Below, piece after piece: positions 1 to 58,052 of a stretch of DNA of 64,000 bases. The notes below the pieces were generated by a model. The model searched no databases and was not told the origin of the DNA. It saw only the letters and a program-made list of their open reading frames with translations. The position numbers and the translations under genes are program-made. Positions within the stretch are counted from its first letter, which is position 1, and the number at the start of each line of letters is the position of its first letter. The DNA is taken from NCBI GenBank assembly GCA_012523135.1, contig JAAYJD010000295.1, forward strand, positions 20,366-84,365, given 5' to 3'. The stretch comes from Clostridiaceae bacterium (GTDB lineage: Bacteria > Bacillota > Clostridia > Saccharofermentanales > UBA5734).

Positions 1-49
1 AGATTGCTTGATTTCATCAGCCGTCGCGCCTGGCCTGACGCCAAGCACG

Positions 50-4266: not shown

Positions 4267-5502
4267 ATGAACAGCTTTGAATACTACAGCCCCACCCGCT
4301 TTGTTTTCGGACCCGGCCGGGAGAGCGAAGTCGGCGCACTGTGCCGGTCCTTGGCCGCCAGCAAGGTCCTGATCCACTACGGCGGCGGTTCGGTCGTGCG
4401 CAGCGGCCTGCTCAAGCGGGTCGAGACTTCCCTGGCCGAAGCCGGTATCGCCTGCCTGACCCTGGGCGGCGCCGTGCCGAACCCCCGCGACGAACGGGTC
4501 TACGCGGGCATCGAGCTCTGCCGCCGCGAACAGGTCGATTTTGTCCTGGGCATCGGGGGCGGCAGCGCGGTCGACTCGGCCAAAGCCATCGCGATCGGGG
4601 CCTGCTACGATGGCGACTTTTGGGATTTCTACAGCAACCAGGCCAAACCGGAGCGCCGGCTCGGCCTGGGCACGATCGTCACCTTGCCGGCCAGCGGAAC
4701 CGAAGGGTCGAACAGCTCTGTGATCACACGCACCGCCGACTGGCTCAAGCGTGGCCTGCGCTCCGATCTCAACCGACCCGATTTCTCGATCCTGAACCCC
4801 GACCTGACCGCTTCCCTGCCCGCCTGGCAGACCGCCTGCGGCGCGGCCGACATCCTGTCCCACGTCTTCGAACGTTATTTCACCAATACGCCCGGCGTCC
4901 TGCTGACCGACAACCTGTGTGAGGCGGTCATCGCCACGGTCATCGAAACCGCGCCCCGGCTGCTGGCCGATTCCCCGTCACAGGACGACCAGGCCAACCT
5001 GATCTGGTCCTCGACGCTGGCCCACATCGGGCTGCTGGGCAACGGCCGCCAGGAGGACTGGAGCGTCCACGCCCTGGAGCACGAGCTGAGCGCCCTCTAC
5101 GATGTCGCGCACGGCGCCGGTCTGGCCGCGCTGTACCCAGCCTGGATGCAGTACACCCTGCCCCACGACCCGGGACGCTTCGCGCGCCTGGCCGTGCGCG
5201 GACTGGGCGTCGCGCCGCAGCCGGTATCGGACATGGCGCTGGCCCGGGAAGGCATCCGCTGTCTGGCGGATTTCTACCGCCGCCTGTCTTTGCCGGTCAA
5301 CCTGCGCGAACTGGGCGTCAATGAGGCCGACCTTCCCCGCCTGGCTGCCAAGGTCAAGCGCAACCCCGACAACAGCTGCGGCTTTTTCCTGCCTTTGCAG
5401 GACCAGGACATCCTGGCCATCTACCAGCTGGCGATGGACTGGCAGCCCGAGATGCTCGGGGACGAAGCAAACAAGCCCGCCCGAACAAAAGAAGAGGATT
5501 GA
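4267..5502 (+). CDS. iron-containing (group III) alcohol dehydrogenase, butanol-DH/YqhD-like
   Basis: About 411 aa. GGGSVVRSG and GIGGGSAVDSAKAI motifs typical of Fe-ADH. GGAGG SD is 9 nt from the ATG at 4267; the alternative ATG at 4261 is only 3 nt from the SD. Confidence 0.88.
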   Translation: MNSFEYYSPTRFVFGPGRESEVGALCRSLAASKVLIHYGGGSVVRSGLLKRVETSLAEAGIACLTLGGAVPNPRDERVYAGIELCRREQVDFVLGIGGGSAVDSAKAIAIGACYDGDFWDFYSNQAKPERRLGLGTIVTLPASGTEGSNSSVITRTADWLKRGLRSDLNRPDFSILNPDLTASLPAWQTACGAADILSHVFERYFTNTPGVLLTDNLCEAVIATVIETAPRLLADSPSQDDQANLIWSSTLAHIGLLGNGRQEDWSVHALEHELSALYDVAHGAGLAALYPAWMQYTLPHDPGRFARLAVRGLGVAPQPVSDMALAREGIRCLADFYRRLSLPVNLRELGVNEADLPRLAAKVKRNPDNSCGFFLPLQDQDILAIYQLAMDWQPEMLGDEANKPARTKEED

Positions 5503-5528
5503 CCCGCAGGGTCAATCCTCGTCTTTTG
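5494..5528. terminator. bidirectional rho-independent terminator between convergent adh and galM
   Basis: Perfect 12-bp stem GAGGATTGACCC / GGGTCAATCCTC with loop GCA. T-run GTCTTTTG follows on the + strand and TTCTTTTG follows on the - strand. The stem overlaps the adh stop codon. Confidence 0.75.
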
Positions 5529-9139: not shown

Positions 9140-9628
9140 TCAGGAGAGGTTCTTGTCCAGCATCTGGCGCAGGTCGTCCTGCATGAATTCCGCGTAGCCG
9201 GCGATGCTTTCGCTGAGCGCGCCGCCGACAAAGACGCTGAACTGGGGGATACTCTGCGCCCCGTAAAGACGAGCCAGATCGCTCGCCTGGTCAACATCGA
9301 CTTTGACGATGATGGCCCGGCCGTCATATTCCAGGGCCAGCTGCTCGATAAACGGCGCGGCCAGGCGGCACGGCGGGCACCACTCGGCCCAGAAATCGAC
9401 AAAAACCGGCTTGTCGGCGGCTTTGACAAAAGCCTGGAAATCGTCGACCGGCTCATGCCGGACTGTACCGTCGGTCACAACGAGCTGGACGACGGCATCG
9501 TTCGCCACGGTCGTCTGCCGCGTTCCCAGCTTGAGCGTGCCGTCCTGGAAAAGGACCACCAAAACGATCGCGGCGATCAAAAGGACCAGGACCGCCACGA
9601 GGATAGGAAACGCTTTTTTCTGGATCAT
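9140..9628 (-). CDS. membrane-anchored thioredoxin-fold protein (WCPPC active site)
   Basis: 162 aa. N-terminal TM helix FPILVAVLVLLIAAIVLVVLF, then a thioredoxin domain with FWAEWCPPCR. AGGAGG SD. Confidence 0.88.
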   Translation of the reverse strand: MIQKKAFPILVAVLVLLIAAIVLVVLFQDGTLKLGTRQTTVANDAVVQLVVTDGTVRHEPVDDFQAFVKAADKPVFVDFWAEWCPPCRLAAPFIEQLALEYDGRAIIVKVDVDQASDLARLYGAQSIPQFSVFVGGALSESIAGYAEFMQDDLRQMLDKNLS

Positions 9629-9748: not shown

Positions 9749-11500
9749 TCAGTAGGCACGCTTGATCTTCTTCGATGTTGTCTTCTCGAATTCCGTGTCG
9801 CGTAGAGTGAACTGGCGAATGTACTTGTATGTGGTCAGGGTGTGGTTGACTTTACGCACCTCTTCCCCGATCAGCTGGCGGACGGCGTCGCCGGCCAGCG
9901 GCACATCGCCGAGCGTTTCCTTGATCTTCTCTTCGTTCGGGAAGATCTCGGCCTTGACATATGTTTCGCCTTCTTCGTCCTCTGCACCCGACACCAGGCT
10001 TTCCTGGATATAATCGCTCTGGCTGAGCAAAAATTCGATTTCCTCGGGGAAGATGTTCTTGCCGTTCTTGGTTACAATGACATTTTTCTTGCGTCCGGTG
10101 ATGATCACGAAACCATCCTTGTCCAAGTACCCCAGGTCGCCCGTGTGGAAGAACCCGTCCGCATCCATGACCTCCTGCGTCGCCTCATCGTTCTCGTAGT
10201 AGCCGAGCATGACATTCGGCCCCTTGCCGATGATCTCGCCGATGCCGTTCTCGTCCTTGTCGACGACCCGGATCTCGACGCCCGGCAAGGCCAGGCCGGC
10301 AGCCCGGTCGTTGTACCAGACGTCCCGGTTCAGGGCCAGGATCGGCGCGCATTCTGTCAGGCCATAGCCCTGGATGCTGAAGATCCCCAGGTCGCGCATC
10401 CCCTTGAGCACGGCTGGGTCGATGGCGGCTCCGCCGGCAATCAGGAGGCGCAGGTGGCCACCGAAGGTATCGTGGATCCGCTTGAAAAGCGTCTTGCGCT
10501 TGTCGACGCCGATCTTGCGCAGGCCGTTGCTCAATTTCAGGCCGATTCTGAACTTTTTGGCCAGCTTCGGATCGGCGGTGGCGGATTTGAGGATGCGCTT
10601 GTAGAACAGCTCGACCATCAGGGGAACGGCCAGCATGACGGTGACCTGAGATTCCTGCATGTTGCGGGTGATGTGGCGCAGGCCTTCGCAGACCGCCACG
10701 GTCGCGCCGCGGTAGATCGGGCACAAAAAGCCGCAGGTGCACTCGTAGGTGTGGTGCAGGGGCAGGACGGACAGGAAGACATCGTCCGGGACGATGTCAA
10801 CCATCTGGCACATGGCCATCAGGTTGATGCAGATGTTGCTGTGCGACAGCATGACGGCCTTGGATTTGGCAGTCGTTCCGGAGGTGAACAGCAAAATACT
10901 CAGTACGGACGGGTCGATCGGAGCTTCCAGGAACCGCTTGTCGCCGCCTTGGAGCGCTGTCTGGCCCTCATCCAGCCAATCCCAGAACGAATGGTCCTGG
11001 CCGCCGGCCTCTTCCGGATCCATCGAGACAAAATAACGCACGGACGGAACCTGGTCCCGGATCGCATCCACTTCTTTCCGCTTGCTCGGAGCGTAGACCA
11101 GGATATCCGCGTGTGACCGGTTGAGCAGGCTGGCGATTTCCGCCGTCGGCAGTTCCTTGTCCAACGGGACCACAATGCCGACTCCGTTGACGGTCGCCAT
11201 GTACGTGACATACCACTCGTAGCGCGTCTCAGCCAGGATGGCCACCCGGGCGGATTCCAGCGGCAGACTGCTAAGGTACGTACCCAGCGTGTCGACATCC
11301 TGGCCGAATTGCCGGTAGGTGACCGGCAGATACGGCTGATTCTTGTCCGTCGGCGCACCTGCCAAGGCAGCGTCGCGCTTCAGCACATGCGGATCCTTGA
11401 TCAGAAAAGCTGTCGTATCGCCGTAATGCTTGACACTTTGCCTGAGCATATCGCGCAAATCCCGAATTGTTCTGACATCGTACAGGGGTATGTTTTTCAT
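9749..11500 (-). CDS. AMP-dependent acyl-CoA synthetase (long-chain-fatty-acid--CoA ligase-like)
   Basis: 583 aa. AMP-binding motif LFTSGTTAKSKAVMLSH, YGLTEC, TGDLGYLDKDGF. Confidence 0.9.
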   Translation of the reverse strand: MKNIPLYDVRTIRDLRDMLRQSVKHYGDTTAFLIKDPHVLKRDAALAGAPTDKNQPYLPVTYRQFGQDVDTLGTYLSSLPLESARVAILAETRYEWYVTYMATVNGVGIVVPLDKELPTAEIASLLNRSHADILVYAPSKRKEVDAIRDQVPSVRYFVSMDPEEAGGQDHSFWDWLDEGQTALQGGDKRFLEAPIDPSVLSILLFTSGTTAKSKAVMLSHSNICINLMAMCQMVDIVPDDVFLSVLPLHHTYECTCGFLCPIYRGATVAVCEGLRHITRNMQESQVTVMLAVPLMVELFYKRILKSATADPKLAKKFRIGLKLSNGLRKIGVDKRKTLFKRIHDTFGGHLRLLIAGGAAIDPAVLKGMRDLGIFSIQGYGLTECAPILALNRDVWYNDRAAGLALPGVEIRVVDKDENGIGEIIGKGPNVMLGYYENDEATQEVMDADGFFHTGDLGYLDKDGFVIITGRKKNVIVTKNGKNIFPEEIEFLLSQSDYIQESLVSGAEDEEGETYVKAEIFPNEEKIKETLGDVPLAGDAVRQLIGEEVRKVNHTLTTYKYIRQFTLRDTEFEKTTSKKIKRAY

Positions 11501-15215: not shown

Positions 15216-15237
15216 TTGCCAACCTGCGGACCGCTGC

Positions 15238-15270
15238 AAAGGGCGGGCTTTGGCCCGCCCTTTGATTGTT
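15238..15270 (+). terminator. intra-operon rho-independent terminator/attenuator after the SBP gene
   Basis: AAAGGGCGGGC-TTTG-GCCCGCCCTTT, an 11-bp perfect stem followed by TTTGATTGTT. Confidence 0.6.
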
Positions 15271-15287: not shown

Positions 15288-16001
15288 ATGAGCCTGGAAA
15301 CGATCATCATCCAGCTGGCCATCGGCCTGCTGAAATCCATCGCGATCTTCGCCCTGACGCTACTGGGCTCCCTGCCGCTGGGCCTGCTCGTGGCCTTTGG
15401 CCGCATGTCCAAATGGGCGCCCCTGAAAAGGCTCACCCTTACGGGCAACGGGCGCTTCAAGCAAAGCCTGGCGGGGATCCGGCCGCTGCAGATACTCGTC
15501 AAGCTGTACATCTCCCTGATGCGCGGCACGCCCCTGATGCTGCAGCTGATGGTCGTTTATTTTGGGCCGTATTACCTTTTCAAGATCCCGATCGGGCAAA
15601 ACTACCGGTTTACCGCCGTGGTCATCGGCTTCGTGCTCAACTACGCCGCCTATTTCGCGGAAATCTACCGTTCCGGCATCGAGTCGATGCCGGTCGGCCA
15701 ATACGAGGCCGCCGCCGTACTCGGCTATTCCCGCCCGCAGACTTTTTTCAAAATCATCCTGCCGCAAGTGATCAAGCGCATCCTGCCCTCCATCACCAAC
15801 GAGGTGATCACGCTGGTCAAGGACACCTCGCTGGCCTTCGCCATCTCCTACTCCGAGATGTTTACCATGGCCCGCAAGATCTCCTCTTCCCAGTCGACCC
15901 TGGTGCCCTTCGTCGTGGCCGGCATCTTCTACTATCTGTTTAACCTGATCATGGCCTATGTGATGGAACGGGCCGAGAAGAGCCTGAGTTACTTCAGGTA
16001 A
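15288..16001 (+). CDS. amino acid ABC transporter permease
   Basis: 237 aa. His/Glu/Gln/Arg-type permease with an EAA-loop-like YEAAAVLGYSRPQTFFKIILPQ. Confidence 0.9.
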   Translation: MSLETIIIQLAIGLLKSIAIFALTLLGSLPLGLLVAFGRMSKWAPLKRLTLTGNGRFKQSLAGIRPLQILVKLYISLMRGTPLMLQLMVVYFGPYYLFKIPIGQNYRFTAVVIGFVLNYAAYFAEIYRSGIESMPVGQYEAAAVLGYSRPQTFFKIILPQVIKRILPSITNEVITLVKDTSLAFAISYSEMFTMARKISSSQSTLVPFVVAGIFYYLFNLIMAYVMERAEKSLSYFR

Positions 16002-24470: not shown

Positions 24471-25061
24471 ATGAAGCGAGGTCAGACCATGAACGTTTCG
24501 ATTCGGGCCTACCAGGAGCAGGACCTTGACACCATGCTCGCTATCTGGAACGAAGTCGTCGCTGAGGGAATTGCGTTTCCCCAGACCGAACGGCTTGACC
24601 GCCGGGGCGGGGCAGCATTTTTTGCCAGCCAGAGCCTGACCGCCGTTGCCGAAACGGACGGCGTTGCCGTCGGATTGTACATCCTGCACCCAAACAACAT
24701 CGGCCGCTGCGGCCACATCGCCAACGCCAGCTATGCCGTCCGCTCCGCCGACCGGGGACTCAAGATCGGCGAACAGCTGGTGCGGCATTCCCTGGCCATG
24801 GCCAGAGAACTGGGGTTTCGCATCATGCAGTTCAACGCGGTGGTCGCGACTAACGGCCCGGCCATGCACCTGTACGATAAGCTGGGGTTTGTCCGCCTGG
24901 GCACGATTCCGGGCGGTTTCCGGATGAAAGACGGCCGTTTCGAGGATATCGTTTTGTTTTATCATCTGTTGGGACGAGATCAGCCAGGCAGTCAAAACTG
25001 CCTGGCTGAAACGCCTGGTATGCCGCCCGATGAAGGTTGCGGATCAGACCGATGGGCCTGA
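24471..25061 (+). CDS. GNAT family N-acetyltransferase
   Basis: 196 aa. Acetyl-CoA motif region RGLKIGEQLVRHSLAMARELGF. Alternative ATG at 24489. Confidence 0.85.
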   Translation: MKRGQTMNVSIRAYQEQDLDTMLAIWNEVVAEGIAFPQTERLDRRGGAAFFASQSLTAVAETDGVAVGLYILHPNNIGRCGHIANASYAVRSADRGLKIGEQLVRHSLAMARELGFRIMQFNAVVATNGPAMHLYDKLGFVRLGTIPGGFRMKDGRFEDIVLFYHLLGRDQPGSQNCLAETPGMPPDEGCGSDRWA

Positions 25062-25103: not shown

Positions 25104-26018
25104 TTATTGCCGCCGGATGGTGCCAAACAGCGGACAGAACACCGCTTCCGATTCAATCCCTTCCCCGCGTTCGTAACGGTAAAACCGGTCCGGACGGATA
25201 GACGATTCGCCGGGTGCGTTCATCGCCGCCAGCATCTGGCGGACCGATTTGGCGTCGTCCCGGATCCAGCTTTGCTCCAACAGGGCGTTTGCCCGAAAAT
25301 ACTTCTCCAGGCGGCCGGTCGCCGCGCGCGTCCGGATCTCGGCAGGCTTTTGTCCCAGGCTTTCATCGGCGGCGATATCCGCTTCGATCTGGCGGGCAAC
25401 ATCCTGCAGGGCTTTGGCTCCGAGGTCATCGCGGGAAACAAACAGCGGTTTCATGGCCGCGATCTGCATGGCCAGTTCCCTGGCGACGCTCTCCCACTGG
25501 GCCGGTCCGATGCTGTCCGGTCCGGTCAAACTCAGGATGACCCCGATCTTCCCGTCCTGGTGCATGTAGGCATAGGGCATGGATCCGGACAGCGTGGCAA
25601 AACGCCGGATCACGATGTTCTCGCCGTAGGTGATGACCATCTTTTGCACCAGCTCGCCCACCGTCATCCCATGCTGCGGCAAGCGGATACGCTGGAGCGC
25701 AGCCACGTCGTCCGGCAGATGCAGGGCGATCGCCTCGGCGATGGTTTCGACCTGGGTCCTGAAAAGCGCGTTTTGGACCACAAAATCGGTCTGCGTGTTC
25801 ACTTCGAGCAGCACGGCGCGCCGGCCGTACATCCTGGCCAGCGCGAGGCCGTCAGCGGCTGTCCGCTCGGCTTTCCGCTCAGCCGTCCGGGCGCCCTTCT
25901 GCAGCAGGCTCGAAATGGCCTTAGCCATATCGCCGTCGTGTTCCGCCAGGGCCGCCCGGCAATCGGCCAGACCGGCACCCGTCTCGCGTCGCAAGGTCTG
26001 AATCGCTTCAATGTTCAT
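25104..26018 (-). CDS. tsf: elongation factor Ts homologue (divergent; paralogue or relocated tsf)
   Basis: 304 aa from the ATG at 26018 (GGAG SD). UBA-like N-terminus LRRETGAGLADCRAALAEHDGDMAKAI and EF-Tu-contact motif VNTQTDFVVQN. The ATG overlaps the PadR stop (ATGA). No rpsB is upstream. Confidence 0.82.
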   Translation of the reverse strand: MNIEAIQTLRRETGAGLADCRAALAEHDGDMAKAISSLLQKGARTAERKAERTAADGLALARMYGRRAVLLEVNTQTDFVVQNALFRTQVETIAEAIALHLPDDVAALQRIRLPQHGMTVGELVQKMVITYGENIVIRRFATLSGSMPYAYMHQDGKIGVILSLTGPDSIGPAQWESVARELAMQIAAMKPLFVSRDDLGAKALQDVARQIEADIAADESLGQKPAEIRTRAATGRLEKYFRANALLEQSWIRDDAKSVRQMLAAMNAPGESSIRPDRFYRYERGEGIESEAVFCPLFGTIRRQ

Positions 26019-26554
26019 GGGTTCGACTCCGTTCTCTGCTGCCATTCGGTCAGGGCCTGCCTGGCCCAGTCCAGCTCCGCCTGGTAAAAACGGTCCAGGT
26101 TTTTGTAAAGCTGGCGATCCAGCCATGACGCGCCGGCAAGGCTGCGGCGCCGGTGGCGCTCGTGTTCCATCGCCTGGCGCATCGCCAGTTCCTCCCGGTA
26201 TCGCTCCAGCATCGCCCGCACGCGTCCGGGTGCGGCGGTGACAGCCAGGGACAGCTGCACCAAAAAAGGATTGCGGAATTCAGGCGGTTCCACCGGCGCG
26301 GATTCGAGCCAGGCGGACAGGGCCTCACGCCCCGCATCTGTGACCGCGTAGACCTTCTTGGACGGCGCGCCGTCCTGGTGGATCGTTTCGCTGCTCAGGC
26401 AGGCCTGGCCAACCAGGCTTAGCAGCGCCTTGTAAATCTGGTTGTTGTTCCCGGACCAATACAGGCAGCTGGAAGCGGCTATGACCTTCTTGAGGTCGTA
26501 ACCGGTCATCGGTTTTTCGGACAGCAGCCCGAGGATGGTGTATTCGAGCAACAT
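26015..26554 (-). CDS. PadR family transcriptional regulator
   Basis: 179 aa. Winged-HTH start LLEYTILGLLSEKPMTGYDLKK. GGGAGG SD 7 nt upstream. Confidence 0.9.
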   Translation of the reverse strand: MLLEYTILGLLSEKPMTGYDLKKVIAASSCLYWSGNNNQIYKALLSLVGQACLSSETIHQDGAPSKKVYAVTDAGREALSAWLESAPVEPPEFRNPFLVQLSLAVTAAPGRVRAMLERYREELAMRQAMEHERHRRRSLAGASWLDRQLYKNLDRFYQAELDWARQALTEWQQRTESNP

Positions 26555-26572
26555 GACATAACCTCCCGTTAT

Positions 26573-26594
26573 CTTATGTTACTTGTAACATAAG
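26573..26594. promoter_or_regulatory. PadR-type operator (perfect palindrome)
   Basis: CTTATGTTAC-TT-GTAACATAAG with 10-bp perfect arms. It contains ATGT-N8-ACAT, the motif described for PadR operators. It overlaps the predicted -10 of the padR promoter. Confidence 0.65.
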
Positions 26595-26610
26595 AAATCA
26601 CACGTGTCAA
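26582..26610 (-). promoter_or_regulatory. promoter of the padR-tsf-like operon
   Basis: On the - strand: consensus TTGACA, 17-nt spacer, TACAAG. The -10 and spacer are buried in the palindrome. Confidence 0.55.
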
Positions 26611-26689: not shown

Positions 26690-27748
26690 ATGTCATACAC
26701 AGACGGTATGGCCGCAATCCACCTGGAGATGCCGGCCCGCATTCCCCGCACCGAGTACTCGGCAGACAGCCTTTGGGAACTGGTCTCCGCCGTGACCGGC
26801 CTGGCCGTCAGCCAGGCCAGCCCGGATGACGTCAAGGCGCGGGCCCGCCAGGCCTTCATGAAAGCCTGGTCCTACGACTTGCGCTGGTCAATCTTGATCG
26901 GCAGACAGGAATTCGGCGACCGACGCACCCGCATGGGGCATGCCGTCTATGCCGCGGAAGGCACTGACTACGACGACCGGATCTCGGTCCTGTTCGATGA
27001 CCCGGAAGCGGCCCTTGCCTTCGATCCCCTGTCGCTGTACGGCAGCCAGGATCAGGCGATGCTGGTCAGGCGCTTCAACGAGCACTTTGCGGCCAACTGC
27101 GCCTTCTTCCCGGACGCGGTCAACATGACCGGCGTCTACATCACCTGCATGTCCGGCCTGATCGATATCTTCGGCTGGAACACCCTGCTGACGGCTGCCG
27201 GCATCGACAGCGAGGCCTTCGGCCAGATGACCAACCGCTACGCCAACTGGATTCTGCCCTATTTCGAAGCGCTGGCCCTGTCCGACACGCCCGTCGTGAT
27301 GGTGCACGACGACATTGTCTGGACCAGCGGCGCGTTCATCCACCCGCAGTGGTACCGGCGGTTCATCTTCCCCAACTACCGGCGGTTCATGCGGCCGCTG
27401 CTGGATTGCGGCAAAAAGGTCCTCTTCACGTCGGACGGCACGTATACGGAATTCATTGCGGACTTGGCCGCCTGCGGCTTTCACGGGTTCGTCTTCGAGC
27501 CCACGACCGACCTGGCGCTCTTGGCCGAACAATACGGCCAGACGCATGTCCTGGTCGGCAATGCCGATACGCGTATCCTGCTGCTGGGCGACCGGGCGGC
27601 CATTCGCGCCGAGGTGGCCCGCTGCCTTGCAATCGGGCGGCACTGCCCGGGGTTTTTCCTGGCTGTCGGCAACCACATCCCGGCCAACACCCCTGTGGAC
27701 AACGCCCTCTACTACCAGGCGGTCTACGAGGAGCTCTGCCGGCGCTGA
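26690..27748 (+). CDS. uroporphyrinogen-decarboxylase-fold (URO-D / MtaA-like) family protein
   Basis: 352 aa from the ATG at 26690 (GAGGAGG SD 5 nt upstream). The C-terminal half resembles the URO-D / methylcobamide methyltransferase family. The assignment is tentative. Confidence 0.6.
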   Translation: MSYTDGMAAIHLEMPARIPRTEYSADSLWELVSAVTGLAVSQASPDDVKARARQAFMKAWSYDLRWSILIGRQEFGDRRTRMGHAVYAAEGTDYDDRISVLFDDPEAALAFDPLSLYGSQDQAMLVRRFNEHFAANCAFFPDAVNMTGVYITCMSGLIDIFGWNTLLTAAGIDSEAFGQMTNRYANWILPYFEALALSDTPVVMVHDDIVWTSGAFIHPQWYRRFIFPNYRRFMRPLLDCGKKVLFTSDGTYTEFIADLAACGFHGFVFEPTTDLALLAEQYGQTHVLVGNADTRILLLGDRAAIRAEVARCLAIGRHCPGFFLAVGNHIPANTPVDNALYYQAVYEELCRR

Positions 27749-29467: not shown

Positions 29468-29497
29468 TTGCCAAATCTATACCAATTATGGTATATT
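29468..29497 (+). promoter_or_regulatory. abiE promoter (extended -10), apparently leaderless
   Basis: TTGCCA, 18-nt spacer containing TGg, then TATATT. The -10 ends 6 nt before the abiEi ATG (29504) and there is no SD in between. The -35 is the right arm of TGGCAA-N13-TTGCCA. Confidence 0.55.
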
Positions 29498-29503
29498 TTT
29501 GAC

Positions 29504-30055
29504 ATGAGTTATTACGATAAAATCTACGAAATTGCAGCAGATCAATATGGTCTCGTCACAACTGATGAAGCCCGTGATTTTGGCATACCCACAATCGAGC
29601 TTGTAAAACTAGCTCACCGCGGCAAACTGAAGCATCTCGGAAATGGGTTATATCGCTTGTCCAGATATCTATCGACGTCGTTCGATGCTTATGCCGAAGC
29701 AGTTAAAAGGGTAGGAACCGGAGCCTGTCTTTTCGGCGAGTCGGTTTTAGCATTTCACAATTTAGTTCCGACTAACCCTTCATTCATATATGTTGCTTCC
29801 CCAATGAGAATTCGTAAAAAATTACCTGGACATATTCGCGTCATCAAGAGACACATTGCCGACGATAAGGTCTATTACGAAGGAATCCCTTCGCAAACCG
29901 TCGGATGCGCAATCCGATCTTGTATGAGTTCGATCATGAAAGAGCGATTAATCGACGCAATACACGAGGCGAGACGAATAGGAATCATAACGAACAGCGA
30001 AGCGACAAAATTGACGCAGGAGTTGGTAAATGACAGAAAAACGACCGAACAGTAA
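29504..30055 (+). CDS. abiEi: type IV toxin-antitoxin / abortive infection antitoxin AbiEi
   Basis: 183 aa. The N-terminal wHTH IAADQYGLVTTDEARDFGIPTIELVKLAHRGKLKHLGNGLYRL is typical of AbiEi_4. The track start at 29468 is a TTG inside the promoter. Confidence 0.85.
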   Translation: MSYYDKIYEIAADQYGLVTTDEARDFGIPTIELVKLAHRGKLKHLGNGLYRLSRYLSTSFDAYAEAVKRVGTGACLFGESVLAFHNLVPTNPSFIYVASPMRIRKKLPGHIRVIKRHIADDKVYYEGIPSQTVGCAIRSCMSSIMKERLIDAIHEARRIGIITNSEATKLTQELVNDRKTTEQ

Positions 30056-30869
30056 GCGGCATCTAGATTTAGCTATCGAACGTGCTTTCGGGCGTTCATC
30101 CAATCCATTGCAGATCAGAGGAATAATGGCCAATACAATTATTGGCCAGCTGTTGCCTTCGGGTGCTGTGAAAGGCGGAAGTGCCCTGAAATTGCGATAT
30201 GGTTATGCCATGACTCGTTTTACAACTGACCTGGACACTGCACGCAACGCAAATTTATCCGAGTATACAGCTGATTTAGAGGCAGCTCTAAAAAAGGGAT
30301 GGAATGGCTTCACGGGGCGGCTTGTCACGAAAAAGCCAGCCAGTCCTAAAAACATACCTGCTGAATATGTCATGAAGCCCTATGAAGTCAAGCTGGAATA
30401 TAACGGGAAATCATGGATAACCGTACCTCTTGAAATAGGACACGATGAAATTGGTGATACTGCTCAACCAGATTTTTTGATTACAGATGATGTTGTTAGC
30501 ATCTTTTCCAAATTAAGTTTTCCTGATCCCATGCCGGTTCCACTGCTGCCTATCCATCATCAGATCGCTCAAAAGCTGCATGCACTGAGTTCGACAAAAA
30601 GTGAAAGGGCGCATGATTTAATCGATTTACAATTGATAATCAAGCGAGAGACGATCACTTATCCCTTATTGAATGCGACGTGTTATAGATTATTCAAGTC
30701 CAGGCATCAGCAAGAATGGCCACCTGTTATTACAAAAGGTGCCAGTTGGGATAACTTATACACATCACAAACAGGTGATCTGCCCGTGATCAAAAATGTC
30801 ACTGATGCTCTGGTCTGGGTCAATAGCCTCATATCAGAGATCTGTCGATCTAGTGATTGCGTGCTTTAA
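30030..30869 (+). CDS. abiEii: nucleotidyltransferase toxin AbiEii/AbiGii
   Basis: 279 aa. NTase motif GGSALKLRYG..RFTTDLDTA. GGAG SD 7 nt upstream. Overlaps abiEi by 26 nt. Confidence 0.85.
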   Translation: MTEKRPNSKRHLDLAIERAFGRSSNPLQIRGIMANTIIGQLLPSGAVKGGSALKLRYGYAMTRFTTDLDTARNANLSEYTADLEAALKKGWNGFTGRLVTKKPASPKNIPAEYVMKPYEVKLEYNGKSWITVPLEIGHDEIGDTAQPDFLITDDVVSIFSKLSFPDPMPVPLLPIHHQIAQKLHALSSTKSERAHDLIDLQLIIKRETITYPLLNATCYRLFKSRHQQEWPPVITKGASWDNLYTSQTGDLPVIKNVTDALVWVNSLISEICRSSDCVL

Positions 30870-58020: not shown

Positions 58021-58052
58021 ATGAAAGATGGCCGCGAACAATCGCGGCCATC
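58021..58052 (-). terminator. serS terminator hairpin
   Basis: GATGGCCGCGA-(4-nt loop)-TCGCGGCCATC, an 11-bp perfect stem followed on the - strand by TTTCAT. A second hairpin, CTTTCAT-N6-ATGAAAG, abuts it. Confidence 0.55.

Follow-up and report, generated by a model that had tools for sequence, protein, structure and literature searches.

The locus described here raises the question of why a bacterium would place a gene for elongation factor Ts (EF-Ts) behind a repressor. EF-Ts is usually regarded as a single-copy, constitutive housekeeping factor tied to rpsB. In a 64,000-nucleotide (nt) stretch of contig JAAYJD010000295.1 from a Clostridiaceae bacterium (assembly GCA_012523135.1), called the window throughout, an EF-Ts homologue (gene tsf2, protein Tsf2) was found directly behind a gene for a PadR-family repressor (padR). 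According to the results given below, the padR-tsf2 pair is probably a self-contained operon, autorepressed and released by a ligand, from which the cell obtains an auxiliary EF-Ts for its EF-Tu; tsf2 would most likely be a switchable spare EF-Ts. PadR repressors, PadR dyads and EF-Ts are all known, whereas a repressor-gated EF-Ts paralogue family is apparently undescribed. Full-text literature searches returned no description of a conserved family of this kind, of PadR together with EF-Ts, or of EF-Ts paralogues.

The coordinates of all features are collected in Table 1. The start of tsf2 lies within the stop codon of padR through an ATGA overlap, as a first-pass annotation of the window had read it, and the sequence, the list of open reading frames (ORFs) and the family scans all agreed with that reading. 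The neighbouring genes are divergent on the padR side (a methyltransferase) and convergent on the tsf2 side (a GNAT gene); therefore, the transcription unit consists of padR and tsf2 only. Neither rpsB nor a second EF-Ts gene was found within the 64-kb window. The exact proteins are deposited as NLO37446.1 and NLO37447.1 from a metagenome-assembled genome (MAG) labelled Clostridiaceae bacterium, and several anaerobic-digester assemblies also carry both. The organism occurs in digester sequencing runs such as SRR9030900-912 and SRR3166067. Other carriers of the cassette are sister MAGs (proteins MCK9252917, MDD2441406 and MDD4140937), GCA_964403755.1, DHGV01 (UBA4789), JBDKUE01, JBEHWI01, CAYNIY01 and CAYRNW01.

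Tsf2 was assigned to the EF-Ts family by PF00889 EF_TS (E 3e-48, 164.4 bits; cut-off 27) and by TIGR00116 tsf (206.7 bits; cut-off 104), and it could be aligned to E. coli EF-Ts over residues 7-266 (E 3e-36). PF25025 matched weakly, at 20 bits and under its cut-off. Tsf2 thus exceeds the TIGR00116 equivalog cut-off, and it is named 'translation elongation factor Ts' or tsf in NCBI MAGs; the members of the PadR-linked clade to which it belongs scored 179-213 bits against this profile, compared with 260-427 bits for housekeeping EF-Ts. The N-terminal LRRETGAGLADCRAAL and the TDFV motif (residues 77-80) were both present. Residues 3-49 formed the three helices of the UBA-like domain in an AlphaFold2 model and contained the TGAG...DC...AL motif, in which T13, G14, C20, A23 and L24 were invariant in the clade. 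The model, built from a 28-sequence alignment, had a predicted local distance difference test (pLDDT) score of 86 and a predicted template modelling score of 0.82, and residues 290-304 were below pLDDT 50. In Foldseek, it matched 4pc3_C, 1efu_B and 7vmx_A with template modelling (TM) scores of 0.73-0.85 and E values of 1e-23 to 1e-24; the EF-Ts matches came from E. coli and M. tuberculosis and were mostly chains of EF-Tu complexes, for which TM scores of 0.76-0.83 were obtained. The complete fold and the retained contact motifs support the earlier description of a full-length but divergent EF-Ts homologue with a UBA-like N-terminus and TDFV.

The positions that contact EF-Tu were then of particular interest. 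A total of 87 positions were conserved in at least 9 of 10 clade lineages, and 46 of these were common to housekeeping EF-Ts, including the TGAG...DC segment, K49, the TDF motif (D78 and F79), GENI and H153. R10, K49, D78, F79 and H153 were invariant in the clade, and all except R10 were shared by 80% or more of the housekeeping EF-Ts in the comparison. They correspond to R12, K51, D80, F81 and H147 of E. coli EF-Ts, the main residues through which, according to the 1EFU structure and its mutagenesis, EF-Ts touches EF-Tu and opens its nucleotide pocket. Only 15 positions were specific to the clade; they represent conservative exchanges and are not obviously located at the EF-Tu interface.

The repressor is of the two-domain type (AphA-like or PadR-s1). 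Its winged-helix domain was matched by PF03551 (E 6.6e-14, residues 7-80) and its C-terminal domain by Vir_act_alpha_C PF10400 (24.7 bits, cut-off 22.4; residues 94-170). The closest solved structure was V. cholerae AphA 1yg2, which was matched over its full length (E 9e-18, query residues 2-170 on AphA 2-174), and the second-closest solved relatives were PadR proteins of the B. subtilis type.

The first-pass annotation had pointed to a perfect PadR-type palindrome with an ATGT-N8-ACAT core upstream of padR. This palindrome was confirmed, and its 10-bp-arm version, CTTATGTTAC-TT-GTAACATAAG at 26573-26594, could be extended to arms of 11 bp. The dyad covers the -10 element, with TACAAG in its centre. 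The hexamers, the spacing and the overlap claimed earlier for the TTGACA-N17-TACAAG promoter all stood, whereas the -10 element is weaker than that claim implied. The canonical PadR operator of both subfamilies is an ATGT/ACAT inverted repeat with a spacer of 8-10 nt, and the core of the dyad fits this definition (PMC3506622). Upstream regions were also read in other PadR-linked lineages, where a TAnnAT-type hexamer, with TGT before it, lies 16-18 nt downstream of a TTGAnn -35 hexamer. Phylogenetic footprinting showed that the dyad, (A)CATATGTTA-N4-TAACATATGT or a close variant, is centred on this TAnnAT-type hexamer. The orthologous cassette promoters have better -10 elements at the same place, namely TATTAT, TAATAT, TAAGAT, TATCAT, TACCAT, TATAAG and TAGTAT.

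The exact core ATGTTA-N4-TAACAT occurred once per locus in 19 cassette loci, just 5' of padR wherever the position was checked, and it was absent from about 150 rpsB-tsf control loci (~1.5 Mb). No further PadR site that would indicate a wider regulon was found in the window with two mismatches allowed, and the dyad core is unique there. In a first-order Markov simulation of the window, exactly this palindrome geometry was expected by chance 0.18 times per 64 kb, and a composition estimate gave ~0.1; the figure of ~0.06 proposed earlier therefore has the correct order of magnitude. Six perfect palindromes with arms of 10 bp or longer and a spacer no longer than 10 bp occur in the window, and the operator is the sole AT-rich one. 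The significance of the operator is drawn from its conservation across cassette loci, not from the chance figure for a single window. The position of the dyad on the -10 element suggests that PadR binds there and represses by promoter occlusion, and the place of padR as first gene points to autoregulation; both proposals rest on geometry and family knowledge. Together with the conserved gene pair, the dyad on the -10 element is consistent with the repressor-gated expression of EF-Ts that had been proposed.

The arrangement was compared across genomes and metagenomes. The patterns of the GTDB genome scan and the metagenome scan also match Ruminococcus-type EF-Ts, and the counts of loci, lineages and genomes given in this text are those among the matches listed. 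The padR/EF-Ts pair was found in 11 distinct lineages with 40-78% identity, mostly with the 4-bp overlap. Hence, the PadR-linked rather than rpsB-linked order reported in the first-pass annotation, which had proposed a check of synteny in relatives, is a recurrent one. The lineages with padR directly 5' of tsf2 were the window group, L004, L001/L002, L003/L017, L006, L013, L014, L018/L097, L096, L180/L181 and L186, and L005 was also padR-linked. L013, L014 and L018 are GTDB genomes labelled Eubacteriales and Pelotomaculum sp. UBA4789, L017 (an Oscillospiraceae MAG) is the same contig as L003, L093-L097 are metagenome cassette loci, L180/L181 lie on a 201-kb contig and L182-L184 represent the sister species. 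The 4-bp overlap was present in L001-L005, L180 and L182, and a 12-nt gap was present in L186. In the low-coverage contig of L006 (cov 2.5; L006:515-1389), the PadR-linked EF-Ts was split into ORFs of 207 and 82 aa, owing to a frameshift error or to pseudogenisation of this copy.

Among 5.8 billion proteins searched, a small group had 42-95% identity and was separated by a gap from Ruminococcus-type housekeeping EF-Ts at 36-38%. Wherever the context of the small group was readable, padR lay directly 5'. EF-Ts loci of at most 38% identity had rpsB directly upstream in 74/74 cases in genomes and in 67/75 cases in metagenomes; the remaining 8 metagenome loci had no tblastn match to rpsB, and at least 6 of these have less than 250 bp of upstream sequence. 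Of such loci with a legible upstream flank, about 130 in total, none lacked rpsB. Loci of at least 40% identity were all behind padR except for the Syntrophomonas lineage. In the latter (L015 and L016, Syntrophomonas/Syntrophomonadaceae MAGs), tsf2 stands alone and divergent from GerA-type germination genes, and a TTGACT -35 hexamer and a PadR-type dyad (AACATATGTTACTTTTATC(A/T)TATGTTA) were kept directly 5' of tsf2 (L015:5929-5975, L016:5927-5975). It looks as if padR was lost or relocated from an ancestral cassette while the operator was kept. Furthermore, tblastx comparisons between divergent cassette loci showed homology limited to padR and tsf2, with unrelated flanks and at least 7 genomic contexts.

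Whether tsf2 is a second EF-Ts gene or the housekeeping gene at a new place was evaluated from its phylogeny, distribution and rate of evolution. In the housekeeping arrangement, tsf directly follows rpsB, and pyrH-frr often come next. Tsf2 neither adjoins rpsB nor groups with the EF-Ts of its taxonomic relatives. In a neighbour-joining tree of 45 dereplicated EF-Ts, the PadR-linked proteins and two Syntrophomonas proteins were monophyletic in 200/200 bootstraps, and the stem branch of this group measured 0.40 substitutions per site. The comparison with housekeeping EF-Ts that had been suggested earlier thus yielded a separate, long-branched clade. Identity between its members and housekeeping EF-Ts, with that of E. 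coli among them, was 33-39% throughout, whereas housekeeping EF-Ts of different Firmicutes classes share 42-53% identity with one another. The clade member from an Oscillospiraceae MAG was only 33-36% identical to Oscillospiraceae housekeeping EF-Ts. The hosts are polyphyletic, with the labels Syntrophomonas, Pelotomaculum, Oscillospiraceae and Saccharofermentanales-like.

The distribution of Tsf2 was then compared with that of seryl-tRNA synthetase (SerRS) from the window. An exhaustive HMMER pass over 1.84 billion representatives placed only 5 clusters (212-325 bits) above the housekeeping plateau, which begins at 186 bits and lies below. For the SerRS, more than 110 clusters shared 70-83% identity, and their labels were Saccharofermentanales, Ruminococcaceae/Oscillospiraceae or Clostridiales. 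For the EF-Ts paralogue there were, besides the sister species at 77-78%, only two clusters in the range of 53-56% and some ten in the range of 40-48%. With the exception of a few PadR-linked proteins, no counterpart of Tsf2 above 38% identity was found for these more than 110 SerRS relatives, which must therefore use a different EF-Ts. At the head of the housekeeping plateau, at 186 bits, stood P0143 (297 aa, representative library). This protein resembles the paralogue clade, with TPF in place of TDF and IVLQDV in place of IVIRRF, and may be a catalytically degenerate member.

The rate of evolution was examined against the sister species, in which tsf2 was the least conserved of 10 syntenic genes (76.9% identity versus 85-94%, and 93% for SerRS). 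Its ratio of nonsynonymous to synonymous substitution rates (dN/dS) was 0.22, and those of the neighbouring genes were 0.07-0.18. For rpsB-linked tsf pairs (n=40, comparable dS), the median was 0.094 and the maximum 0.207; tsf2 has evolved about twice as fast as housekeeping tsf by this measure. The ratio is well below 1, and tsf2 is therefore under purifying selection and functional. The constraint is weaker than would be expected of a sole essential factor. These results strongly suggest that Tsf2 is an accessory paralogue beside a canonical tsf elsewhere in the genome. The first-pass annotation had named the opposite case, a sole tsf with the same relocation in relatives. As far as the retrieved sequences allow it to be judged, this case did not apply, given the SerRS relatives that lack a counterpart.

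A mechanism can be proposed from these results. A dimer of the AphA-like PadR would bind the 24-bp dyad with its core ATGTTA-N4-TAACAT, block RNA polymerase at the extended -10 element and thereby repress its own bicistronic mRNA. A ligand, possibly a small hydrophobic or phenolic compound by analogy with other two-domain PadR proteins, would free PadR from the operator. The padR gene would then be translated from its strong Shine-Dalgarno (SD) sequence and tsf2 by translational coupling through ATGA. Because translation is coupled, both proteins would rise together, and the system would close again by negative feedback. Tsf2 would most likely bind EF-Tu as a nucleotide-exchange factor and supplement or replace the rpsB-linked EF-Ts under the inducing condition; this role is proposed because the full EF-Ts architecture and the pocket-opening residues are kept.

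Several observations weigh against this mechanism. TACAAG is a weak -10 element that lacks T at position 6, which is why the promoter scan did not call a padR-tsf2 promoter; the promoter was kept in spite of this because of the comparative evidence from the orthologous promoters. The canonical C-terminal helix, which contacts EF-Tu in E. coli and packs on its domain 1, could not be recognised in the subgroup of the window. In clade members, TIGR00116 covers profile positions 5-280 of 293, with 281-293 unmatched, and in the window protein, P0001, P0002, P0004 and P0005 the helix appears to be replaced by the conserved tail VFCPLF, i.e., (A/P)V(F/L)CPLF(G/N), whereas the other clade members keep a helix of the ARQ(M/L)A type. 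The interaction between Tsf2 and EF-Tu could differ from the canonical one for this reason. In the Syntrophomonas-type loci, padR is absent, and cis-adjacent control by PadR is therefore not obligatory. No genome with both the cassette and a canonical rpsB-tsf was found among the GTDB and metagenome matches listed. Finally, a comparison of flanks across lineages revealed no third gene conserved beside the cassette, and the context is uninformative on the inducing condition.

The alternatives were weighed against the same evidence. One alternative is that the only EF-Ts gene of these genomes has moved from rpsB to a place behind padR and diverged fast. In its favour, no canonical rpsB-tsf of a cassette-carrying genome was among the matches listed, and Tsf2 passes the equivalog cut-off and carries a tsf annotation. 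This explanation is nevertheless very improbable. Hosts with diverse labels share one clade that has 33-39% identity to all housekeeping EF-Ts, including those of Oscillospiraceae, the close SerRS relatives have no orthologue, and tsf2 evolves faster than any other gene in its syntenic block; in addition, it would be unusual for an essential translation factor to depend on an autorepressed, stress-type promoter. A mere juxtaposition, in which the palindrome and the overlap have no regulatory meaning, could appeal to the 0.1-0.2 perfect palindromes of this kind expected per window. The recurrence of the same dyad at the same promoter position in the cassette lineages examined, with none in the control loci, leaves this explanation effectively refuted and its probability close to nil. 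It is also rather unlikely that Tsf2 has been neofunctionalised, so that it has no general exchange role and acts as a partner or sensor for PadR (for example, one that connects EF-Tu or nucleotide status with transcription) or as a binder or sequestering factor of EF-Tu or an EF-Tu paralogue. The tight translational coupling, which implies a co-ordinated PadR:Tsf2 stoichiometry, the relaxed constraint, the apparent loss of the canonical C-terminal module and the TPF motif of the distant relative P0143, which suggests drift from catalysis in some members, would fit such a role. The catalytic and contact motifs are, however, all invariant in the clade, the Syntrophomonas tsf2 without an adjacent padR must function independently of a neighbouring PadR, and related PadR proteins pair with unrelated genes, such as a GGDEF gene (L185), as ordinary repressors do.

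The remaining alternative is target protection, in which an inducible EF-Ts isoform would keep EF-Tu cycling, or free EF-Tu, under a compound or protein toxin that hits EF-Tu or EF-Ts. Elfamycin-type antibiotics and EF-Ts-requiring toxins are candidates, and the signal for PadR would be the compound itself or the effects that it causes. FusB-type proteins, which protect EF-G, offer an analogy. The cassette is rare, patchy and located in unrelated contexts, like accessory resistance genes; tsf2 evolves faster than housekeeping tsf, and its product has a distinct C-terminal tail. PadR repressors typically gate genes for detoxification, drug efflux and resistance (PMC3506622). Against this, no biosynthetic, efflux or resistance gene was linked to the cassette, the cassette did not occur in the collections of plasmids, phages and viruses searched, no link was found in the literature, and the clade-specific substitutions are conservative and lie at no obvious interface with EF-Tu. 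Target protection is accordingly regarded as unlikely. A more explicit version, an inducible 'EF-Tu rescue', is doubtful to the same degree: the EF-Ts with the altered tail would restore nucleotide exchange or displace an inhibitor after a chemical poison of EF-Tu/EF-Ts cycling or an EF-Ts-exploiting toxin has freed PadR. If true, EF-Tu would be the site of target protection, and no such form of resistance has so far been described for EF-Ts. If tsf2 is no more than a redundant spare copy, it would enlarge the known set of PadR regulons only modestly.

The operon of an auxiliary EF-Ts, which remains the preferred reading, can be placed beside known systems. Accessory and differently regulated copies or partners of a core elongation factor are represented by Streptomyces tuf3 and the FusB-type EF-G protectors; these concern EF-Tu or EF-G, not EF-Ts. 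Housekeeping EF-Ts (E. coli Tsf; PDB 1EFU, 4PC1-7) has the same length class, UBA-like N-domain, TDF core and coiled coil as Tsf2, whereas Tsf2 does not stand behind rpsB, shares only 33-39% identity with it, is probably repressor-controlled and is very rare. The PadR-s1 phenolic-acid systems (PadR-padC of B. subtilis and Lactiplantibacillus; PDB 5X11-14, 6JYI) are organised like the cassette: a two-domain PadR of ~180 aa, an ATGT-N8-ACAT dyad on the promoter and a single adjacent effector gene, which a small ligand de-represses, as is proposed here. The effector is a decarboxylase in those systems and a translation factor here, where repressor and effector are also co-transcribed and coupled. 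AphA (V. cholerae, PDB 1YG2) has the same N-terminal winged helix-turn-helix and C-terminal Vir_act_alpha_C dimerisation domain, but it is a virulence and quorum-sensing activator of a proteobacterium with no known ligand, whereas the promoter geometry here indicates a repressor. In LmrR-lmrCD and bcPadR1-BC4207, the repressor gene also comes first, with a protective gene downstream and an ATGT/ACAT dyad in its own promoter (PMC3506622); these are short PadR-s2 repressors that control transporters or membrane proteins.

A conserved, fast-evolving EF-Ts, probably a second copy gated by a repressor, thus travels with padR as a unit of two genes among anaerobic Firmicutes. Nucleotide exchange on EF-Tu may accordingly be open to regulation under specific conditions, or it may be a target of attack against which bacteria protect themselves. 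The small size of the system (one repressor, one operator and one effector) offers a route to the PadR ligand and to a test of whether an additional or alternative EF-Ts gives tolerance to a stress or to EF-Tu-directed antibiotics. Furthermore, annotation could separate tsf from its paralogue, since TIGR00116 names both identically.

Table 1. Features of the padR-tsf2 locus and its surroundings (window positions unless a locus is named).
Feature	Position	Strand	Remarks
-35 hexamer TTGACA	26610-26605	minus	read from sequence; consensus
Predicted PadR operator, TCTTATGTTAC-TT-GTAACATAAGA	26572-26595	both	perfect inverted repeat; 11-bp arms, 2-bp centre
Core ATGTTA-N4-TAACAT (ATGT-N8-ACAT)	26576-26591	both	inside the operator dyad
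Extended -10 TGn	26590-26588	minus	TGT before TACAAG; supplied by the left operator half-site
-10 hexamer TACAAG	26587-26582	minus	17-nt spacer from -35
SD sequence GGGAGG for padR	26567-26562	minus	7 nt 5' of the padR ATG
padR	26554-26015	minus	179-aa ORF; matches to PF03551 and PF10400
Internal GGAG before tsf2	26027-26030	minus	8 nt 5' of the tsf2 ATG
padR stop/tsf2 start overlap ATGA	26018-26015	minus	ATG 26018-26016, TGA 26017-26015
tsf2 (EF-Ts homologue)	26018-25104	minus	304-aa ORF; matches to PF00889 and TIGR00116
C-terminal tail of Tsf2	25104-25150		residues 290-304; alignment A1 columns ~355-371; disordered in AlphaFold
GC-rich perfect hairpin	24980-25009	unstranded	13-bp stem; ~95 nt past the tsf2 stop, inside the GNAT 3' end
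Convergent GNAT gene	24471-25061	plus	flanks the tsf2 side
Divergent URO-D/MtaA-like methyltransferase gene	26690-27748	plus	flanks the padR side
Terminator-like hairpin	L013:~5345-5400 (two copies), L014:~5355-5395, L180:~9355-9395, L181:~1-40		

Several minor structures were observed around the cassette. A terminator-like hairpin, GGAAGCAAAGGGACGTTCTTTTTGCTTCC followed by a T-rich run, lies just 5' of the cassette -35 element and is conserved in three related lineages; it may shield the cassette from transcripts that start further upstream, or move together with it. Downstream of tsf2, the 151 nt surrounding the GC-rich hairpin fold at -63.6 kcal/mol (z = -5.1). This hairpin does not fit a classical intrinsic terminator: its stem is strong, but it has no U-tract on either strand, and the terminator scan called none here. 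It may mark the transcript end, and its membership in the cassette is uncertain. The GC-rich hairpin palindromes of the window were counted as five and are listed at 24980-25009, 5494-5520, 15237-15264, 58027-58052, 10778-10798 and 15673-15693. No Rfam element, such as an RNA leader or riboswitch, was matched in the region at E values up to 1.

The PadR subfamily far exceeds the EF-Ts clade in size, and other partner genes occur. A PadR with 46% identity lies directly 5' of the gene for a seven-transmembrane (7TM)-GGDEF diguanylate cyclase (L185:5001-7110). Fusions to DUF4180 (~305 aa) are frequent among the close PadR relatives (42-48% identity), e.g., in Defluviitalea saccharophila and Epulopiscium; P0361, P0364, P0368, P0403, P0426, P0428 and others belong to the set of relatives that includes these fusions. 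The PadR of the window is an ordinary repressor lineage with an unusual acquired target.

Mobile elements and defence families were also searched. In PLSDB and INPHARED, tblastn with Tsf2 returned only housekeeping-like matches of at most 38% identity, and the IMG/VR scan contained no Tsf2 relative above the housekeeping level. PADLOC gave no match for PadR or Tsf2; PHROG gave none for Tsf2 and only a generic regulator PHROG for PadR. Membership in a phage or anti-phage defence system is not supported, given these negative results from PADLOC, PHROG, IMG/VR and the phage records. The contexts of four 'plasmid' EF-Ts genes were inspected, and three of them (Legionella, A. baumannii and B. velezensis) were rpsB-tsf-pyrH-frr regions. 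The plasmid-labelled sequences concerned are NZ_CP083716.1 of B. velezensis (L173, 807 kb), NZ_LR134438.1 of Legionella adelaidensis ('plasmid 29', L178, 63.6 kb) and NZ_CP098797.1 of A. baumannii (p2VB280821, L179, 135 kb). They carry rpsB-tsf(-pyrH-frr) with chromosomal neighbours such as map and glnD, and have the appearance of chromosome fragments or chromids that were deposited under a plasmid label. The only other stand-alone tsf encountered, of the typical actinobacterial kind, was present on the Rhodococcus opacus plasmid pRho-VOC14-C86 (L177:1477-2304; 86.6 kb, MOBP), with neither rpsB nor an obvious regulator upstream. It has 34% identity to the PadR-linked clade, is unrelated to it and is an independent example of an accessory EF-Ts.

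Among the best non-clade HMMER matches were proteins of 470-1130 aa with 3-5 EF-Ts-matching stretches (P0144-P0154, P0159-P0160, P0164, P0166, P0175, P0181, P0191 and P0193). Plastid-type polyproteins carry tandem EF-Ts units, and the multi-stretch proteins look similar to them. In the window itself, a pair of genes for an AbiEi antitoxin and an AbiEii nucleotidyltransferase toxin (PF13338 and PF08843) was located at 29468-30869 on the plus strand, 3 kb from the cassette. The GC content at third codon positions of this pair was ~0.40-0.42, compared with ~0.8 in the remaining window, and the pair is a horizontally acquired island. In the sister species (L182), an HD-domain gene and a GNAT gene occupy the equivalent position.

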